The notes beneath the pieces were generated by a model, which saw only the letters and a program-made list of their open reading frames with translations, had not been told where the DNA came from and searched no databases. Made by a program: the position numbers and the translations under genes. From Thermotogota bacterium (lineage in GTDB: Bacteria; Thermotogota; Thermotogae; Petrotogales; Kosmotogaceae), in the NCBI GenBank assembly GCA_034660555.1, contig JAYEJL010000114.1, positions 1-43,242 on the forward strand: a DNA stretch of 43,242 nt, read 5' to 3'. Position 1 is the stretch's first letter. Each line of letters starts with the position of its first letter. Shown here piece by piece: positions 17,447 through 31,088 of this stretch.

Positions 17447-18367
17447 TTAGACCAGCCCTTCTTCAATACATTCAACCAACAATTTTACAATTTCTTCATA
17501 ATATGCTACACCAGCTAATTTTTTTAATTCATCAAGGGTTTTGCTGACCTCAATTGCTTCTCTGTAGGGTCTTTTAGAGGTCATAGCATCAAAACTATCA
17601 GCAACTGCCAATATTTTTGCTTCCAGTAAAATTTCATCATTCTTTAATCCATAGGGATAACCAGAACCATCAATACGTTCATGATGTTGTTCAATAATTT
17701 TAGAGATTTGTTCTAAAAAGGTATCTTTTACCAGTTCTGCACCCCTAACAGGATGTTTTTTTATTATCTCGAATTCTTCTTTCGTTAGCCTTGTTGGTTT
17801 TTTTAGAATATCATCAGGGATATCAATTTTTCCTATATCATGTAATAGTGCTGCCCAGGTAAGGTTCTCCATTTCATCCTGGTTTAACCCGACTTTATTT
17901 CCTATAGCAAAGGAAAGATCTCTTACCCTTTTACCATGATTGTGTGTGTATTCATCCTTGCTTTCAACTTCTTTCAACATGCTTTTAAGTTCCTTTATAT
18001 CGTTACTCAAGTATTTAAAGACAGGTTTCGAACTGACGTATAGAAGTTTTGTTTTGGTTAGTGCCTTGAAAGAAACAGGTGCAAAAAAAAGATGATTAAC
18101 ATAAAAATAGTCACCAGCTTCAAGAGGATTCATTTTGGAGTTAGTGAGTGTCAGGCAGGTAACTGAGCCTTCGAGGATGTAATAAAACTCGATTAATCCG
18201 CTTGTTGTACCCGGTTCTATGAAAAAAGTAGTGTTCTTTTTTATCTCTTGAATCAATACTTCAACATGGTCTCCGGAGGCGAGTAAAGACAGGGCACCGC
18301 TTTTTTGTGAAACCTTTTCAATATACGAATTTTTCTTTTTTAGATGTAGTCCGCGTATGTTTTTCAA
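17447..18367 (-). CDS. Cupin-like N-terminal domain + HD-GYP phosphodiesterase
   Basis: EFYYILEG...L.AGDY (cupin-like); D.YTHNH, LLHDIGK, HHERIDGSGYP, VADSFDAMTSKRPYR. Confidence 0.9.
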   Translation of the reverse strand: MKNIRGLHLKKKNSYIEKVSQKSGALSLLASGDHVEVLIQEIKKNTTFFIEPGTTSGLIEFYYILEGSVTCLTLTNSKMNPLEAGDYFYVNHLFFAPVSFKALTKTKLLYVSSKPVFKYLSNDIKELKSMLKEVESKDEYTHNHGKRVRDLSFAIGNKVGLNQDEMENLTWAALLHDIGKIDIPDDILKKPTRLTKEEFEIIKKHPVRGAELVKDTFLEQISKIIEQHHERIDGSGYPYGLKNDEILLEAKILAVADSFDAMTSKRPYREAIEVSKTLDELKKLAGVAYYEEIVKLLVECIEEGLV

Positions 18368-22040: not shown

Positions 22041-23471
22041 GTGAATACATTGAAGGTAAAACCATCAAAATTCATTGAAGACAGTATCCCTTTCGTTGAA
22101 AAAATTTTGAAAGGATTGGAAAGAAATTATGATTATGTTTCTGTACTTGGCACAGATGTTTTTGGAAAACAACATGTAGTGACCAGCAGAGGAACAAATT
22201 ATAATGATTCGCAGTGGACTGAACGAGGGTTTGTTGTGAGAGCCCATGATGGCACTGGTTACGCGGAGTTCTCTTTTAATGAAATTGATGACCCGGAAGT
22301 TATTGTTCGGAGAATAAACAGCAATATTGTTAATAATGATGTTTTAAAGGAATCAAACTTAGAAAGGAATGCTTTTAAAAAGATAGAAGAACAGGAAATG
22401 GAAGAAAGCTTCTCAGGTGAAGTGAAAATACTACCGGAGAATGTTGCCACAGAAGAAAAGCTAAACAGACTGAATGCAATGAAACAAAAAGCACATGAAG
22501 CATCTGATAAACTGGTTAATTTTTTCGCGGTTTATGAAGAAGTGACTGTAAACAAGTTATTTTTCTCTAACAAGAAACGACTCAAACAATCATATATCTG
22601 GTCACAGGGTTATCTGAATGCAGTTGTAAGGAAAGAAAATAAGACACGTGTTTCCTATGAGGGTTTTTCAGGCTTGAAAGGCCCCGAGCTCTTAGATGAA
22701 ATGGAATCACGATTAAAGGATATAGTTGACGAAGCTGTAAAGCTACTTGACTCAGAAAAAATAAAACCGGGAGTTTATGATGTGATTTGTTCACCTGAAG
22801 TTTCCGGACTTGTTGCTCATGAGGCTTTTGGACATGGTGTTGAACTGGATATGTTTGTTAAAGACAGTGCAAAGGCCAAAGAATATATGGGCAAAATGGT
22901 TGCTTCAGAGCACGTTACAATGCATGATGGAGCCAGTGCAGCGAAGGAAGTTTCATCCTATTTTTTCGATGATGAAGGCGTTCTGGGGAAGGATACGGTA
23001 ATAATAAAAAACGGAAAACTTGTTTCTGGTATTGGAGATTTGCTTTCATCCATGAGATTAGATGTTGATCCAACAGGAAATGGGAAACGAGAATCCTTTG
23101 AAAAGAAAGCGTATTCTAGAATGACCAATACCTTCTTTGAACCCAGAGAGGATAAATTGGAAGATATGATCTCTTCAATAGATAAGGGTTATCTTCTAGA
23201 AAAATACACCAGTGGAATGGAAGATCCCAAGAATTGGGGTATACAATGTGTGATTTTGTTTGGCCAAGAAATAAAGGACGGAAAATTGACAGGAAAGATT
23301 GTTTCACCAATTTTCATGACAGGGTTTGTACCTGATTTATTAAAATCAATAAGCATGGTTTCAGGTAATTTCAGATTGTCTGGAACAGGTGCATGTGGAA
23401 AAGGGCACAAAGAATTTGTGAAGGTTTCCGCTGGGGGCCCCTATATTAAAGCTAAAGCGAGGTTAGGATAA
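22041..23471 (+). CDS. tldD: TldD metallopeptidase (start possibly TTG 22050)
   Basis: HEAFGHGVE, DDEG, RMTNTF, CGK near the C-terminus. Confidence 0.9.
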   Translation: MNTLKVKPSKFIEDSIPFVEKILKGLERNYDYVSVLGTDVFGKQHVVTSRGTNYNDSQWTERGFVVRAHDGTGYAEFSFNEIDDPEVIVRRINSNIVNNDVLKESNLERNAFKKIEEQEMEESFSGEVKILPENVATEEKLNRLNAMKQKAHEASDKLVNFFAVYEEVTVNKLFFSNKKRLKQSYIWSQGYLNAVVRKENKTRVSYEGFSGLKGPELLDEMESRLKDIVDEAVKLLDSEKIKPGVYDVICSPEVSGLVAHEAFGHGVELDMFVKDSAKAKEYMGKMVASEHVTMHDGASAAKEVSSYFFDDEGVLGKDTVIIKNGKLVSGIGDLLSSMRLDVDPTGNGKRESFEKKAYSRMTNTFFEPREDKLEDMISSIDKGYLLEKYTSGMEDPKNWGIQCVILFGQEIKDGKLTGKIVSPIFMTGFVPDLLKSISMVSGNFRLSGTGACGKGHKEFVKVSAGGPYIKAKARLG

Positions 23472-24763
23472 TGATTGAAAAAATAATTGAATTACTCTCA
23501 AAATCAAAAAATATTGATGGTTGGAAAATCGTTGATGATGTAATTGAAGACAAAGAACTGTTTTTTATAAAGAAAAAACTCGACATGAATAGAGCTAAAA
23601 AGGTAAGGAATTTTTACCTAACTGTTTACAAAGATTTTGATGAAGAAGGAAAATCATATAGAGGTTCCGCTGAAGTGAAAATACATCCAACAATGAAAGA
23701 AGAAGAGATTAAAAATGTTATTGAAGAGTCCGCATATTCAGCAAAATTTGTGAAAAATCCCTGGTATCCTATGGTTAAACCCGTCGCTGAGAAAGTTGAT
23801 AATCACAGCGAAAAGCAAGTATTTGATGAGTTGTATTCTCTTGCTGAAAGTCTTTACGATTCAGATGTATATAAAGAAGGTTGGATAAATTCTTCGGAAT
23901 TCTTTTTGAATCACTTAAAAAGAAGAACAGTTAATTCTGAAGGCGTGGACTGTTCGTATGAAAAGAACAGGTTGTTCATTGAGTACATTACTACATGGAA
24001 AAATAAAGAAAAAGAAGGAGCGGAGCTTTACTGGCAAATTTTAATATCAAGATTCTCAAAAGATTTCATTAAGAAAAGAAGTAATGACTCACTCTTACAA
24101 ACAGCATATAGAGCAAATGCTACTAGTACCCCTTCTGTTGGAGATATTCCCATGATAATTTCTGGTGAGAACATAATAAGTCTTATGGCCATGTTTCTGG
24201 CAAAAGCCTCTTCAAGGATGGTTTATGAAAAAATCTCTACATTCGATATTGGAGACAATGTCCAGGGTGAGGATATTAAAGGTGATAGGTTGTCCATAAC
24301 CATAGATCCGTCTATAGAAGGATCTTACTATTCTGTTCCCTATGATAAAGATGGATTACCCTTGAAGAAAGTGGAAGTAATTGAAGATGGAATAATTAAG
24401 AAGTTTTGGGGAAATGTTAGATATTCCCATTATTTGGAAAATGAACCTACCGGATCAATGACGAATATATCCGTCAAAACTGGAAATACAAAACTGGATG
24501 AACTCCGAAATGGCAAACACCTGGAAGTAAGGGAATTTTCTGATTTCCAGACTGATCACACCACCGGCGATTTTGGTGGAGAAATAAGAATGGGCTGGTA
24601 CTTCAATGGAGAGGATAGAATACCGGTAACTGGAGGATCTATTTCAGGGAATCTGAATGATATTAAGAATGAAATGTTGCTTTCAAATGAAACTGTGTCG
24701 ATGAAAAATTATTCAGGGCCTTTTGCTGTAAAGCTTAACAATATACGTATTTCAGGTTCCTGA
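23471..24763 (+). CDS. TldE/PmbA-like partner subunit
   Basis: Translationally coupled to tldD; PmbA-type C-terminus (YDKDG, TGDF, PVTGGSISGN); lacks HExxxH. Confidence 0.85.
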   Translation: MIEKIIELLSKSKNIDGWKIVDDVIEDKELFFIKKKLDMNRAKKVRNFYLTVYKDFDEEGKSYRGSAEVKIHPTMKEEEIKNVIEESAYSAKFVKNPWYPMVKPVAEKVDNHSEKQVFDELYSLAESLYDSDVYKEGWINSSEFFLNHLKRRTVNSEGVDCSYEKNRLFIEYITTWKNKEKEGAELYWQILISRFSKDFIKKRSNDSLLQTAYRANATSTPSVGDIPMIISGENIISLMAMFLAKASSRMVYEKISTFDIGDNVQGEDIKGDRLSITIDPSIEGSYYSVPYDKDGLPLKKVEVIEDGIIKKFWGNVRYSHYLENEPTGSMTNISVKTGNTKLDELRNGKHLEVREFSDFQTDHTTGDFGGEIRMGWYFNGEDRIPVTGGSISGNLNDIKNEMLLSNETVSMKNYSGPFAVKLNNIRISGS

Positions 24764-27038: not shown

Positions 27039-27803
27039 ATGGAAAAGCAACCTTTTGTTATTGGTGAAGAAAATAAGCGCATTGTTGGGATTGTACAAAA
27101 GCCTGATGGTGAAGGGAAATTCCCTGCTGTCATATTCTGCCATGGATTCACAGGAAATCATATTGAGCCTCACTTTATTTTTCGACGGGCTGCTGATGCT
27201 CTGGTAAAGAATAATATAGGTGCTATCCGCTTTGATTTTAGAGGTTCAGGAGACAGCGATGGTGATTTCAAAGATATGACTATTCGAACAGAACTTGAGG
27301 ATGTTGAAAAAATATATAATTATGCTCTTTCTCTACCATGGGTTTCTTCTTCAAGGATAGGTATTCTTGGATATAGTATGGGAGGAACGATAACAGCTTT
27401 TTTCACTGGTGCTAATCCTGATAAAGTAAAAACGGTCTGTTTCTGGGCTCCCGCCTTAAGAAATGTTGAGGTTTTCACATCTCATTCTGGAAATACTGAA
27501 GAAGAGAAAAGATTATTTGAAGAAGGTTTTATGGATGTTGGGGGACTAACTATAAGCATGGATTTCATCAAAACCATAACAAGTAAAAACAGCCTGGATG
27601 AACTGGATAATTTTAAAGGCAATGTGTCAATTATTCATGGAACCGAAGATGAGGCAGTTCCTTATGAAATGAGCAAGGAAATCTCAGAGAAGCGTGGATA
27701 TAATCTCTGCACTATAGACGGAGCAAACCACACGTTTGACAGAGAAAAATGGATTGAACAACTATTAAAGCATACTACAGAGCATTTCACGAAAGAATTG
27801 TAA
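27039..27803 (+). CDS. Alpha/beta hydrolase (esterase/peptidase S9-like)
   Basis: HGFTG, FDFRGSGDSDG, nucleophile GYSMGG, HGTEDEAVP, GANH; ATG 27039 after GGAGGTGG. Confidence 0.9.
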   Translation: MEKQPFVIGEENKRIVGIVQKPDGEGKFPAVIFCHGFTGNHIEPHFIFRRAADALVKNNIGAIRFDFRGSGDSDGDFKDMTIRTELEDVEKIYNYALSLPWVSSSRIGILGYSMGGTITAFFTGANPDKVKTVCFWAPALRNVEVFTSHSGNTEEEKRLFEEGFMDVGGLTISMDFIKTITSKNSLDELDNFKGNVSIIHGTEDEAVPYEMSKEISEKRGYNLCTIDGANHTFDREKWIEQLLKHTTEHFTKEL

Positions 27804-27819
27804 AAAAACCTTTAAATGG

Positions 27820-27843
27820 GCGCCTGTGAAAGGCGCTTTTTTT
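27820..27843 (+). terminator. Rho-independent terminator
   Basis: GCGCCT-gtgaa-AGGCGC followed by T7. Confidence 0.85.
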
Positions 27844-27915
27844 ATGTCAATTTGTTATCTCAATCGAATGATATTTTATCATGAAGCAATAAAGAGAAAA
27901 ATCGTGATTTAACTC

Positions 27916-27975
27916 ATTATTTGCCATTACGTTGAGTAATTGGCGGTTATTGGGTATTATTTGCTGTTATTATAT
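27916..27975. repeat. Six degenerate 10-bp tandem units upstream of the micropeptide promoter
   Basis: attatttgcc|attacgttga|gtaattggcg|gttattgggt|attatttgct|gttattatat. Confidence 0.5.
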
Positions 27976-28008
27976 TCTAACACCCTGATAGTCGACAGTC
28001 ATTCAATT

Positions 28009-28037
28009 TTGTCTTAATAGGTAGTTTTTTATATAAT
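28009..28037 (+). promoter_or_regulatory. Sigma70-type promoter for the micropeptide genes
   Basis: TTGTCT (28009-28014), N17, TATAAT (28032-28037). Confidence 0.7.
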
Positions 28038-28124
28038 AGAAACATCAATCGTATGAAGGAACTCAGCAGCGCATATTTATAGTAATTATTCTATTATATT
28101 AATACTTATTTGGAGGTGGCTTTT

Positions 28125-28160
28125 ATGTGGAAAATGCCTGATGAAGACGAAGAGCATTAG
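28125..28160 (+). CDS. 11-aa micropeptide MWKMPDEDEEH
   Basis: RBS GGAGGTG at 28112-28118; shares WKxPD + acidic tail with the next sORF. Confidence 0.75.
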   Translation: MWKMPDEDEEH

Positions 28161-28221
28161 CTGACTTTTAGTAGTAACGTACGTAAGAAAGAAAAACTAT
28201 TTTTTAAAGGAGGTTGGCATA

Positions 28222-28278
28222 ATGCGAAACATTCCTGGTTTTTGGAAGATACCTGATCCTGAAGATGATCTTTGGTAA
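28222..28278 (+). CDS. 18-aa micropeptide MRNIPGFWKIPDPEDDLW
   Basis: RBS AAAGGAGGT at 28206-28214; WKxPD + acidic tail; terminator follows. Confidence 0.8.
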   Translation: MRNIPGFWKIPDPEDDLW

Positions 28279-28299
28279 TACTAAGATTGTGAAATACTG

Positions 28300-28335
28300 A
28301 AATAAATTTTTGGGGCGTTGCCCCATTTTATTTTT
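28300..28335. terminator. Terminator shared by the micropeptide unit and the convergent HD-GYP gene
   Basis: TGGGGC-gtt-GCCCCA (28311-28325) followed by TTTTATTTTT and preceded by AAATAAA. Confidence 0.7.
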
Positions 28336-30010
28336 GTAATATTTCTTCAATAATGGGAACACAAATTGATTTAAAATCTACATCTTTCTTTTTGAATAGA
28401 TCTTCTTTAGTTAAGTCAAGTAATTCATTTATAATTTTTTTAGAAGCAATATTATTTCCCTTTTTTCTCATATATTCACGCGCTTCTTCGAATGAAAGCG
28501 CTTTTCTGTATGGTCTATCTGTGGTTAGTGCATCAAAAACATCAGCAGCAGCTACAATCTGAACGAGTAGCGGTATCTGTTTTTTTGTTAATCCTTCGGG
28601 ATAGCCCGAACCGTCAAAACGTTCATGATGATACTTCACTATATTGACAATCTCAGCCGGAAAGTCAAGATGCTGTAGATATGAGGCACCAAATGTAGGA
28701 TGTTTTCTTACAGATTCCATCTCATCATCATTGAGTTTTGCTGGTTTATTTAGGACTTCAGAAGGTACGATCATTTTTCCGTAGTCATGGAGCATCGCAC
28801 CTATAGCTAAATTAAAAAGCTGTGGTCGGTTTAACTTAAGATTTTTTCCGATCATAAAAGATAGTTGTGAAACCCTCATTGTATGACCCGCTGTATAATC
28901 ATCAGATTTACTTAGTTCATCAATCAAATCTTCAAATATTTTTATGGCACTGTTTTGAAGATTTATGACAAGGTCTCTTAAATGTAGAGAGGATGTCCTA
29001 TTGTTTTTAAGAAGGTTATGGGCTTCAATAGATTTTTTTAGTCCTTCAATCTTCTTACCACTCGCACTCTTGGTTGCTGCTTCGAGTACAAGAGCTTCAC
29101 CCTGAATATATTTGTTATTGTCGTAATCTGGATACGATTTTATTTCTTCCAAGTAATTTAAAGCCTGGACTTTGTTACCTAACTTCAAGTAATAATGGCC
29201 CAAAAAAACGTATGAATACCAATAATCTATCCAGTTTGGTCTGCTATCATTTAATTTCTCCAATCTTTTAACTGCTTTGGAAGCAGCTAAAAGATCGTTT
29301 TTTATTAGAAAAATCTTTAGTTTACTAGTTTCAGCATAGCCAACAAAACTTGGATAATCTGGGACATTGATTTTTTCTAGTAGCTCAATTGATTTATCAT
29401 ATTCTCCATTAGCGTAGTGGAGGTCAGCGATGTTGATTTGAATCATTGCCTTTCTTCGACTATCTTCAGCAAATTTTAGTGCTTTTCTATAATATTTATA
29501 GGATGTTTCATTATTATATAGCTGGACGCTTACCAACCCCAATGCATTGTAGTAATCGAAAGAAATATCTTTGGGGACATCTTTATCCATTTTAATAAGC
29601 TTTCCATAATACTCTTTTGTTTCGTCTTCAAGGCCCATTTCAAATGCAGTCATCATTCTAAGGAACATAAGCCTTAAAGCTGTTTCAGATGAAGAATGCT
29701 CACCATCAGCAATATCAGTTCCCATAGATGCAATTAAGTGTGCCAAACTGTCTCTGTTTCTAACTGAATAAAAATAGCCCAGTTGAAAAAGACCTTCAAG
29801 TAATTCATTTTTCGAGTAATCAAGTGAAAATGATTTTTTCCCAAAAGTTGATTCCATTACGAAATTCAAAGCTACAGTAAAAGAATATGCCCGAGCATTT
29901 TCTTTTGCTGCGCTTATCTGCTCAAGAAGTTTTTTCCTATTAAATGATTCAGGATTTTTTTCAAGCTCAAGTGCCAGTTTTTTTAAGTTTCGCATTAATT
30001 TCCTGCCCAT
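28328..30010 (-). CDS. TPR-repeat + HD-GYP phosphodiesterase domain protein
   Basis: TPR-like helices (YYNALG..., INIADLHYANGEYDKSIELL, YVFLGHYYLKLGNKVQALNYL); C-terminal D.YTAGH, LHDYGK, HHERFDGSGYP, ADVFDALTTDRPYR. Confidence 0.9.
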   Translation of the reverse strand: MGRKLMRNLKKLALELEKNPESFNRKKLLEQISAAKENARAYSFTVALNFVMESTFGKKSFSLDYSKNELLEGLFQLGYFYSVRNRDSLAHLIASMGTDIADGEHSSSETALRLMFLRMMTAFEMGLEDETKEYYGKLIKMDKDVPKDISFDYYNALGLVSVQLYNNETSYKYYRKALKFAEDSRRKAMIQINIADLHYANGEYDKSIELLEKINVPDYPSFVGYAETSKLKIFLIKNDLLAASKAVKRLEKLNDSRPNWIDYWYSYVFLGHYYLKLGNKVQALNYLEEIKSYPDYDNNKYIQGEALVLEAATKSASGKKIEGLKKSIEAHNLLKNNRTSSLHLRDLVINLQNSAIKIFEDLIDELSKSDDYTAGHTMRVSQLSFMIGKNLKLNRPQLFNLAIGAMLHDYGKMIVPSEVLNKPAKLNDDEMESVRKHPTFGASYLQHLDFPAEIVNIVKYHHERFDGSGYPEGLTKKQIPLLVQIVAAADVFDALTTDRPYRKALSFEEAREYMRKKGNNIASKKIINELLDLTKEDLFKKKDVDFKSICVPIIEEILQK

Positions 30011-30182
30011 AATTATTCTAAGTAAATATTAACACGAAAAACTGGTTTATAATGCTTTTATAGTATTTATATGTTTGTTATAGACATTTTTAAATTATAT
30101 ATAAAGCAAAACTTAAAAACAATGATATAACACTGTCTAGGTGATCATTTAATTGTTTATAATACGAACAGGAGGTGTAACA

Positions 30183-31088
30183 ATCGATTTTAAAAAACTT
30201 GAACTGAAAGACTATAAATTTGTTCAAAAATTCCTCGAAGAATATGAAGTAAAAAATTCTAAAATGTCTTTTGTCAATTTGTATGCGTATGATCATTTTC
30301 ATGGAGCTTTAATAGACAGAGATTGTAGTGATAAACTGATCATTTTGTCCAGTCCTAAAGGTACTGATCCAGCGTTTTTTCCTCCACTATGCAAACGAAA
30401 TGACCTCAATAAAACAATAGATGAAATGAGGACCTATTACACAGAAAACTTTGGGAGTCCTTTAAAAATAAAACAATGCAGCGAAGATTTCATAAATGAA
30501 ATTAAGGAAAGTGGTTTTTCTTTTTCGAGAGAAAAAATTCGAGAACAATGGGAATATATTTATAAAGTAGAAGACTTAGCTGATTTATCCGGACGGGAAA
30601 TGCACAAAAAGAAAAATAGAGCAAATAAATTTGAGCGCGAACATCCTGATTACAAATTTCGAATGTTGAGTGATTTTGATGAAAATAACGTACTGGATTT
30701 TTATGACTACTGGTGTACCTTTAGAGAGTGCAAGAATAATAAAAACCTGGCTTTTGAAAGGAAGGCTTTAGAAACTCTATTTGAACTGAAAAGAATGGAT
30801 TATCCTGTTGAGGGCGGAATAGGGTTTGATGGAAACAGAATGGTTGGTTTTGTTCTGGGAACAAGACTCAATAAAAAGCTGTTTGTTATATTATCTGAAG
30901 AAGGCGAACTGGATAGCAAATATGGAGGCGTTTATGCTGTTTTAAACAGAGATATGGCCAGACAAATTAATGAAAAATACGAATTTCCTAATTTACAACA
31001 GGATCTGGGAATCAAAGGGCTTAGAAAGTCAAAACGTTACTGGAAACCTGAGTTGTTACTAGTATGTGATGTAGTGCATATACCATGA
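30183..31088 (+). CDS. DUF2156 / LPG-synthase C-terminal (Fem/GNAT-like) domain protein; apparent ATC start
   Basis: SFVNLY, EYIY..EDLADLSG, KKNRANKF, N.QQDLGIKGLRKSK; RBS GGAGGTG at 30171-30177 points to ATC 30183. Confidence 0.8.
   Translation: MDFKKLELKDYKFVQKFLEEYEVKNSKMSFVNLYAYDHFHGALIDRDCSDKLIILSSPKGTDPAFFPPLCKRNDLNKTIDEMRTYYTENFGSPLKIKQCSEDFINEIKESGFSFSREKIREQWEYIYKVEDLADLSGREMHKKKNRANKFEREHPDYKFRMLSDFDENNVLDFYDYWCTFRECKNNKNLAFERKALETLFELKRMDYPVEGGIGFDGNRMVGFVLGTRLNKKLFVILSEEGELDSKYGGVYAVLNRDMARQINEKYEFPNLQQDLGIKGLRKSKRYWKPELLLVCDVVHIP

Follow-up and report, generated by a model that had tools for sequence, protein, structure and literature searches.

In the peptide-sensing systems grouped as RRNPP(A), among them Rap-Phr, NprR-NprX, PlcR-PapR and AimR-AimP, a cytoplasmic receptor of the tetratricopeptide-repeat (TPR) type is encoded next to a small peptide gene, and the output is either DNA binding or partner binding of the Rap type together with phosphatase activity. 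Within Thermotogota, the sole precedent for peptide signalling that we found is a putative signal of Thermotoga maritima, whose short peptide gene we take to be TM0504, a name for which a literature search returned no paper. This gene, of another family and with another peptide, is expressed more at high cell density according to a review passage that names no receptor (PMC4187201). Peptide quorum sensing by TPR receptors is described in two surveys as a feature of Firmicutes/Bacillota and of mobile elements (PMC10075063; PMC9765709), and the main texts of these surveys contain no word beginning with Thermotog and no mention of phosphodiesterase, HD-GYP or cyclic di-GMP (c-di-GMP). Represented in our work is a locus on a contig of Kosmotogaceae (Thermotogota), analysed over its whole length of 43,242 nt (the window, to which all coordinates refer; its genome measures 2.1 Mb), where two short open reading frames (sORFs) in a 530-bp gap face a convergent gene for a 560-aa protein with an N-terminal TPR domain and a C-terminal HD-GYP domain. 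We consider it rather probable that the locus encodes a Kosmotogaceae-restricted peptide-receptor pair, RRNPP-like in its logic, with cyclic-dinucleotide hydrolysis as output, binding and activity both being predicted. Existing annotation calls these proteins only 'hypothetical protein' or 'HD-GYP domain-containing protein', and a search that left subscription journals outside found no paper on a peptide-sensing TPR-HD-GYP protein or on a Mesotoga c-di-GMP system. Compared with the known TPR receptors and their adjacent peptides, the output, the phylum and the leaderless peptide forms are new here.

An orthologue search in 41 related genomes yielded full-length orthologues of the receptor (37-89% identity) in 21 of them, all from one family. 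The source names of homologous proteins identify this family as Kosmotogaceae and, among its genera, labelled g1 (the genus of the window, five genomes) to g6, identify g5 as Mesotoga. At 21 of 21 orthologous loci, spread over five genera, at least one sORF with a strong Shine-Dalgarno (SD) sequence and the motif lies convergent to the receptor gene and immediately 3' of it, two of these loci being partial at a contig end. The shared core reads (G)PG-[LFMY]-W-x-[IVF]-P-[DE] and is followed by acidic residues. The sensor domain (residues 1-345) was detected in 21 of 151 Thermotogota genomes, all from the same family (g1 5/5, g2 3/3, g3 3/3, g4 1/1, Mesotoga 9/10, g6 0/3), with 0/126 in the other ten families; g6 has neither receptor nor peptides. 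When 1.84 billion representative proteins were searched exhaustively with a profile, eight matches reached E ≤ 1e-30, namely five full-length clusters, one paralogue and fragments, while the weaker matches were generic TPR proteins. Concerning the peptides, the DNA pattern M-W-K-x-P-[DE]-[DE], typical of the first sORF (sORF1), occurs once and only once in each of 17 of the 21 genomes with the receptor, and P-G-x-W-K-x-P-[DE] matches 14 of the 21; these matches belong to the receptor locus itself or, where the assembly is fragmented, lie at the end of a different contig. The 130 receptor-less genomes hold two stray matches of the former pattern and three of the latter, all five of which look like chance, as they fall within long ORFs or have neither start codon nor acidic tail, and reversed-pattern controls gave one and zero matches. 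Additionally, all 13 pattern matches from a metagenome scan are true sORF1 genes; eight of these loci hold the convergent receptor and the remaining five reach a contig edge within about 550 nt, which makes 8 of 8 among contigs that are long enough. The sORFs co-occur strictly with the receptor, and the initial annotation, which had pointed to the flanks of TPR-HD-GYP homologues as the place where similar sORFs should recur, is borne out by W-K/x-x-P-D/E sORFs at every orthologous locus and in every sufficiently long metagenome contig. The genes around the pair vary by genus (alpha/beta hydrolase and an LPG_synthase_C-like gene in g1 and g3; PCMT and TldD/PmbA in g4; a chromate-transporter gene and an MBL-fold gene in Mesotoga; DegV and an uncharacterised 465-aa protein in g2), leaving the receptor-peptide pair as the constant unit.

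Within the genome of the window, the motif stands in a plausible sORF context only in the two sORFs of the gap (Table 1). A third PGLW-x-x-PE frame, on contig C27 of that genome, has no SD and an unrelated context and was discarded as chance. No in-frame start lies further upstream of the second sORF (sORF2). Variable sites fall mainly at third codon positions (third/second/first: 8/3/2 for sORF2 within the genus, 21/5/4 for the mature part of the Mesotoga precursors, 4/0/1 for the sORF1 core across 14 genomes), in agreement with the protein-level selection first suspected from the two window peptides. The sORFs exist and evolve as coding sequence. The frames are very short (11 and 18 codons), they lie in an AT-rich intergenic region, and promoter-like sites around them are fewer than expected (6 versus 12.2), all of which would fit chance frames; that explanation is refuted, practically beyond doubt, by the comparative data, that is, the 21/21 loci, the strong SDs, the third-position bias, the strict co-occurrence and the explained strays. 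The initiator Met of sORF1 corresponds to the hydrophobic position ahead of Trp in the longer peptides, which makes sORF1 a minimal cytoplasmic copy of the shared core.

Table 1. Features of the peptide-receptor locus (window coordinates)
Feature	Position	Strand	Description
Terminator of the upstream alpha/beta-hydrolase gene	27818..27838	+	8-bp stem and T-run; kept in 5 genomes of genus g1
12-nt motif, upstream copy	27860..27871	+	TCAATCGAATGA; candidate operator; conserved in genus g1
Promoter-like site	28009..28037	+	TTGTCT-17 nt-TATAAT; 10/12 consensus matches; conserved in g1
12-nt motif, second copy	28045..28056	+	TCAATCGTATGA; 8 nt past the -10 box, where the transcript starts or close by
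SD of sORF1	28112..28118	+	GGAGGTG
sORF1	28125..28160	+	Leaderless, 11 aa, MWKMPDEDEEH; ATG at 28125; conserved, SD-led
SD of sORF2	28206..28214	+	AAAGGAGGT
sORF2	28222..28278	+	Leaderless, 18 aa, MRNIPGFWKIPDPEDDLW; core PGFWKIPD; conserved, SD-led
Hairpin	28311..28325	both	TGGGGCGTTGCCCCA; terminator-like score each way; stem kept in 5 g1 genomes
Receptor gene	28328..30010	-	560 aa, convergent to the sORFs; TPR repeats and HD_5/HD-GYP
HD-GYP phosphodiesterase domain	28451..28951	-	Receptor residues ~354-520; motifs H, HD, H, HHE, GYP and D intact
TPR-type sensor domain	28976..30010	-	Receptor residues 1-345; all-helical, 17 helices; Pfam TPR matches, model pLDDT (predicted local distance difference test) 91

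Pfam places TPR repeats at about residues 150-300 of the receptor and HD_5 (PF13487) at 362-519 (E = 8e-37, 127 bits, the cut-off being 27.2). The receptor is predicted to have no membrane segment (highest 19-residue Kyte-Doolittle mean 1.55), and twelve residues (H376, H408, D409, H437, H461, H462, E463, G469, Y470, P471, D490 and D493) do not vary among 16 orthologues, which together confirm the initial description of a neighbour with TPR-like repeats, no transmembrane segment and an intact HD-GYP domain. The HD-GYP motifs all align with those of V-cGAP3 (5z7c) and PmGH (4mcw). The closest solved sequence is V-cGAP3, a phosphodiesterase specific for cyclic GMP-AMP (cGAMP; E = 1.5e-33), followed by the c-di-GMP phosphodiesterase PmGH (E = 7e-26), and in the full-length model (pLDDT 86) the C-terminal domain matches DvhD (9rbz), PA4781 (4r8z) and PmGH by Foldseek. 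Judged from these sequences, the substrate is presumably c-di-GMP or 3'3'-cGAMP. The receptor is thus alike to the described HD-GYP phosphodiesterases (PmGH, PA4781, DvhD, V-cGAP3) in Pfam family, sequence, fold, and metal-binding and GYP motifs, and differs from them in its sensor: DvhD carries a PAS sensor, whereas the TPR domain here is rare, as the eight hits mentioned above illustrate. The HD-GYP phosphodiesterase RpfG and PA4781 both carry REC domains. The genome of the window has seven HD-GYP matches and five GGDEF genes; a second HD-GYP protein of 306 aa, without a recognisable sensor domain, is encoded 10 kb away at 17447-18367 (- strand). The record protein of the window (P0012) has 555 aa, because gene calling placed its start at the second Met (MRNLKK...) and not at the first ATG (29996-30010). 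Search patterns derived from the full-length receptor alignment fell inside the HD-GYP domain and returned at least 80 generic HD-GYP loci from many phyla, and were set aside as uninformative. A partial HD-GYP protein with the source label Elusimicrobiota (P0020) is 71% identical to the receptor of the window and probably comes from a mis-binned contig.

The model of the TPR domain was compared with solved structures by VIA-align. MalT domain III (Z = 23.6), APPBP2 (Z = 23.1) and an APC subunit (Z = 20.7) were matched, as were, over most of the length of the domain, the RRNPP receptors phi105 Rap in its peptide-bound form (Z = 20.2 over 291 residues, root-mean-square deviation 4.2), AimR (Z = 20.0) and NprR-NprX (Z = 19.1), with further Rap proteins and PlcR ranking below NprR-NprX. 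Like the sensor modelled here, MalT domain III and the degron receptor APPBP2 are superhelical TPR-like sensors of a small ligand or a short degron; their sequence, output and biology are unrelated and the likeness reflects a common repeat architecture. The fold is compatible with an RRNPP-like receptor, although kinship is not proven by fold. The Asn contacts and the helix count of RRNPP receptors may also have their analogues in the receptor here.

We modelled docking with a pair from Mesotoga (genome G021; TPR residues 1-345 with precursor residues 19-48, our own alignments being supplied), because the window peptides of 11 and 18 aa are below the advised 30 residues. The three runs scored 0.65, 0.65 and 0.79 in ipSAE, an interface confidence score, against 0.02 for the best of three controls; the mark is reached by 116 of 157 solved complexes and by 2 of 215 mismatched pairs, in a calibration made without user-supplied alignments. 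The runs share at least 70% of contacts, with a partner pLDDT of about 49-50. In the model, the C-terminal DGGPGLWKIPE.Y of the peptide lies in the concave TPR groove, with Trp against M120, F123, N155 and L159 and the preceding Leu against N193, I222 and Y225, so that two conserved Asn are contacted, as in the RRNPP receptors. Family-invariant residues account for 11 of the 36 receptor interface residues (M120, F123, G126, N155, L159, N193, Y199, K232, F269, Y301 and E305) compared with 24 of 309 elsewhere (Fisher p = 2.5e-4). The peptide core is thus modelled as docked in the TPR groove, and the co-folding of peptide and TPR region put forward in the initial annotation comes out positive for the pair of a relative, which passes its controls with the conserved motif in the groove. 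The same annotation had proposed an RRNPP-like module with second-messenger hydrolysis as output, a proposal which the pairing at 21/21 loci and the co-fold model support. As for co-variation between peptide and groove, position 152 is acidic in 11 of 12 aligned receptors with a W-K peptide (Q in one g2) and Gly in two g3 genomes with a W-[VT]-F peptide, while two other lineages without the Lys keep Glu; the pattern amounts to a single evolutionary event, too weak to use.

A mechanistic analogy can be drawn with eukaryotic proteins. The TPR domains of PP5 and Hop are three-repeat carboxylate clamps that bind acidic C-terminal peptides, and in PP5 the TPR domain autoinhibits the fused phosphatase until the acidic C-terminus of Hsp90 relieves the inhibition. 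Relief of the PP5 type offers a plausible parallel for the way in which peptides with acidic tails would act on an enzyme fused to a TPR domain. Unlike in PP5 and Hop, the confident contacts in our model come from the hydrophobic W-K-I-P core and not from the acidic tail.

The peptides occur in several forms across the genera. Both are leaderless in g1, and g3 and g4 have one leaderless peptide of 20-26 aa (e.g., MFTVLMGPGMWVFPDDDDKLED). Mesotoga and g2 encode a peptide of the sORF1 type (MWKIPEEEDH, MWKIPEEEEPH or MWKVPDDEEE) followed by one to four precursors of about 48 aa, which have a signal-like N-terminus (MKK, a hydrophobic stretch and A-x-A|GPG; 19-residue Kyte-Doolittle mean 2.41) and two copies of GPG[LFM]WK[IV]P. 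The initial annotation had noted that the peptides have no signal sequence; this stands for the clade of the window and fails for Mesotoga and g2, where the signal-like precursors strengthen an export and re-import reading and imply a secondary loss in the window's clade. Precursors of this kind, signal-like at the N-terminus and carrying the active motif at the other end, are a further RRNPP-like feature. Tandem duplication of the pheromone is described for Rap-Phr propeptides (PMC11343458). In the Mesotoga genome G021, four tandem precursor genes (L113:4426-5142) follow each other with a period of about 190 bp, and three of them encode identical proteins, pointing to amplification or gene conversion in the recent past. 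A truncated precursor copy with a disrupted signal region, MLFCLLDLLMMVTVDGGPGLWKIPEGY, at L012:3157-3240 (- strand) is probably a decaying duplicate.

The tandem core repeats and the tandem precursor genes (up to four copies) of Mesotoga also recall ribosomally synthesised and post-translationally modified peptides (RiPPs), repeated cores being a feature of some RiPP precursors. The peptides would then be RiPP or bacteriocin precursors, and the receptor gene would be a neighbour without relation to them or would serve immunity or regulation. However, in none of the genera does a modifying enzyme, a dedicated exporter or a gene of the immunity type recur near the pair, the precursors match nothing in NCBIfam, and leaderless forms of 11-26 aa persist in three genera, so we regard this origin as very improbable. 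In the maximum-likelihood tree the receptors form three clades, g2, Mesotoga and (g4,(g3,g1)), the last with 100/99 support. Precursors with signal peptides occur in the first two clades and leaderless-only peptides are confined to the third, for which a single loss of export is the simplest account. sORF1 is present in g1, g2 and Mesotoga and is always first in the operon. Peptide variants of Mesotoga follow two receptor subclades (GPGLWKIPE with MWKIPEE[ED]DH, and GPGFWKIPE with MWKIPEEEEP[HQ]); as this is expected of linked genes, it is consistent with pairing and is not independent evidence.

Every element of the transcription unit initially proposed for the gap (a promoter-like site, two SD-led sORFs and a shared terminator) was found in its place. 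The hydrolase gene upstream has its own terminator, so the gap forms a separate unit, and the hairpin at its other end, 3 nt past the stop of the receptor gene, is common to the peptide unit and the receptor gene. The promoter-like site is the best of six in 27700-30300, where shuffled sequences give a mean of 12.2; the match is hence not significant by itself, and it is conservation that backs a promoter. Relatives have TGTACAAT, an extended -10, at this site, and -10-like GTACAAT or GTAGAAT also occurs in the g3 and g4 loci. The 12-nt motif TCAA[AT]CG[AT]ATGA has only two copies in the whole 2.1-Mb genome, both in this gap, on the same strand and 185 bp apart, and a related motif, GTCAAACGAATGA, occupies the equivalent place just past the -10 box in the g3 and g4 loci. 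It is a possible operator for a separate DNA-binding factor. The gap is about 90% identical overall within g1. An RNA-library contig from a relative runs directly from 27875 to 27980, thereby lacking 104 nt of the gap upstream of the promoter, and probably represents an indel variant of a related strain. A TldD/PmbA peptidase pair lies 3.4 kb upstream (22041-24763) and a PmbA-like gene adjoins the g4 receptor (L007:3445-4530); proteases of this type process small peptides, and the proximity is probably inherited synteny.

Several observations weigh against the peptide-receptor pair proposed here. The evidence is confined to one bacterial family, and the adjacency could be inherited rather than selected, though the flanks are rearranged. 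MalT domain III, APPBP2 and the APC subunit score at least as high as the RRNPP receptors, a sequence profile run against PDB chains finds only generic TPR proteins (PilF, CTPR), and the top Foldseek matches listed are generic TPR proteins with no RRNPP receptor among them. The co-fold remains a prediction, made for the pair of a relative, with a partner pLDDT of only about 50 and a calibration that did not include alignments of our own, and it may partly reflect memory, since TPR-peptide complexes are common in the PDB. A cytoplasmic sORF1 that shares its core with an exported peptide sits uneasily with a circuit devoted purely to quorum sensing. Evidence from RNA is weak for the region: one metatranscriptome run contains 9% of sampled words, and its contigs (85-95% identical, hence derived from relatives) cover 30 of 30 bins of 27700-28900, and with them sORF1 and a portion of sORF2; being blind to strand, ends and level, and open to DNA carry-over, they are not counted as support. 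Finally, the five g1 genomes share a single nucleotide sequence for sORF1 and its SD (100% identity, with no synonymous change in sORF1), while the receptors are just 70-89% identical, which points to an additional or alternative constraint on the nucleotides.

This invariance, which extends to much of the 5' leader while the neighbouring protein falls to 70% identity, would suit an sORF1 that is mainly a regulatory leader, either an upstream open reading frame or an RNA element for the downstream peptide genes, and so would its first place in the operon throughout; the longer peptide would then be the sole functional product, an arrangement compatible with the peptide-receptor pair. Across genera, however, sORF1 varies synonymously and keeps M-W-K-[MIV]-P-[DE] with an acidic tail, its core matches the part of the longer peptides that docks in the model, Rfam gives no family over 27700-28400 (best E-values 0.6-9.5, all far under the gathering scores), and the predicted transcript fold is no better than in shuffles (z = 0.38). 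We therefore hold a mainly regulatory sORF1 to be quite unlikely.

Somewhat more credible, albeit still unlikely, is that the peptides are functionally linked to the receptor gene without being its ligands, for example as secreted or surface effectors co-regulated with, or downstream of, cyclic-dinucleotide signalling. A conserved neighbourhood and co-occurrence fit any functional link, the convergent orientation precludes co-transcription, and the conserved 12-nt promoter motif suggests a separate DNA-binding factor. Furthermore, paralogous TPR-HD-GYP genes of 543 and 550 aa in g3 and g4 (L111:2352-3983 and L112:2527-4179, both - strand; 34-36% identity) have no adjacent peptides and, in genomes G006 and G007, keep most groove residues, including N155, N193, K232 and E305, so these residues are not specific to the peptide-linked copies, a further point against a peptide ligand; the paralogues might also listen to the same peptide. 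On the other hand, the co-fold sets the conserved core on invariant groove residues, its controls staying at 0.02, and the leaderless acidic peptides of 11-26 aa in g1, g3 and g4 are without an obvious extracellular role. In g2, moreover, a protein of 444-465 aa, divergent from the peptide operon (L136:1069-2466, + strand; L137:1081-2415, - strand), shares homology with the TPR sensor domain (hhalign probability 96.8%, 223 columns) and has no HD-GYP domain, so that the peptides are bracketed by two sensor-domain proteins. The C-terminal ~130 aa of this homologue match no family, and the protein could serve as a second receptor coupled to another output.

In the peptide-receptor reading that we favour, the N-terminal TPR domain of the cytoplasmic 560-aa protein would sense short peptides and signal to the C-terminal HD-GYP domain, which would hydrolyse c-di-GMP or 3'3'-cGAMP with an activity altered by peptide binding. 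The ligands would be the products of the convergent micro-operon, with a hydrophobic-W-K/x-hydrophobic-P-D/E core and acidic residues. For Mesotoga and g2 we envisage that the longer peptide leaves the cell, is trimmed and re-enters it, following the quorum-sensing logic of RRNPP systems, whereas in the g1/g3/g4 clade the signal peptide would have been lost and both window peptides would act inside the producing cell; phosphodiesterase activity would then follow transcription of the micro-operon. Binding in living cells, the direction of regulation, the choice of substrate and the cycle of export and re-import in Mesotoga and g2 are what we infer here; the two peptides may, as initially suggested, be an agonist and an antagonist, and for sORF1 the candidate roles are private agonist, competitor or leader. 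Compared with the RRNPP(A) systems, known from Bacillota and mobile elements and ending in a helix-turn-helix or a Rap-type partner-binding/phosphatase output, the receptor here belongs to Thermotogota and ends in HD-GYP, has no detected sequence homology to them, stands in convergent gene order, and comes with an extra leaderless peptide of the same core, the window's clade having no signal peptide at all. By analogy, and given these differences, the system is better called RRNPP-like in logic than a member of that family. A bolder scenario, possible but doubtful, is that an ancestral operon encoded a 'private' cytoplasmic sORF1, its Met-Trp-Lys-x-Pro imitating the mature core, and a 'public' exported ligand, the two competing for one TPR groove, and that loss of the signal peptide from the public ligand in the window's clade turned quorum sensing into intracellular, transcription-gated allosteric control of cyclic-dinucleotide hydrolysis; this would be a micropeptide switch, encoded in the genome, for a second-messenger enzyme and the first RRNPP-like system outside Bacillota.

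The module is small and easily testable with synthetic peptides and one recombinant protein. If the peptide-receptor reading is true, an HD-GYP enzyme would gain a defined ligand, and a peptide signal would be coupled to cyclic-dinucleotide turnover within one protein, with no intermediate transcription factor. The family would also offer a natural series, with exported precursors at one end and leaderless peptides at the other, in which to study how a communication system becomes an intracellular micropeptide regulator, and the logic of peptide quorum sensing would reach Thermotogota.

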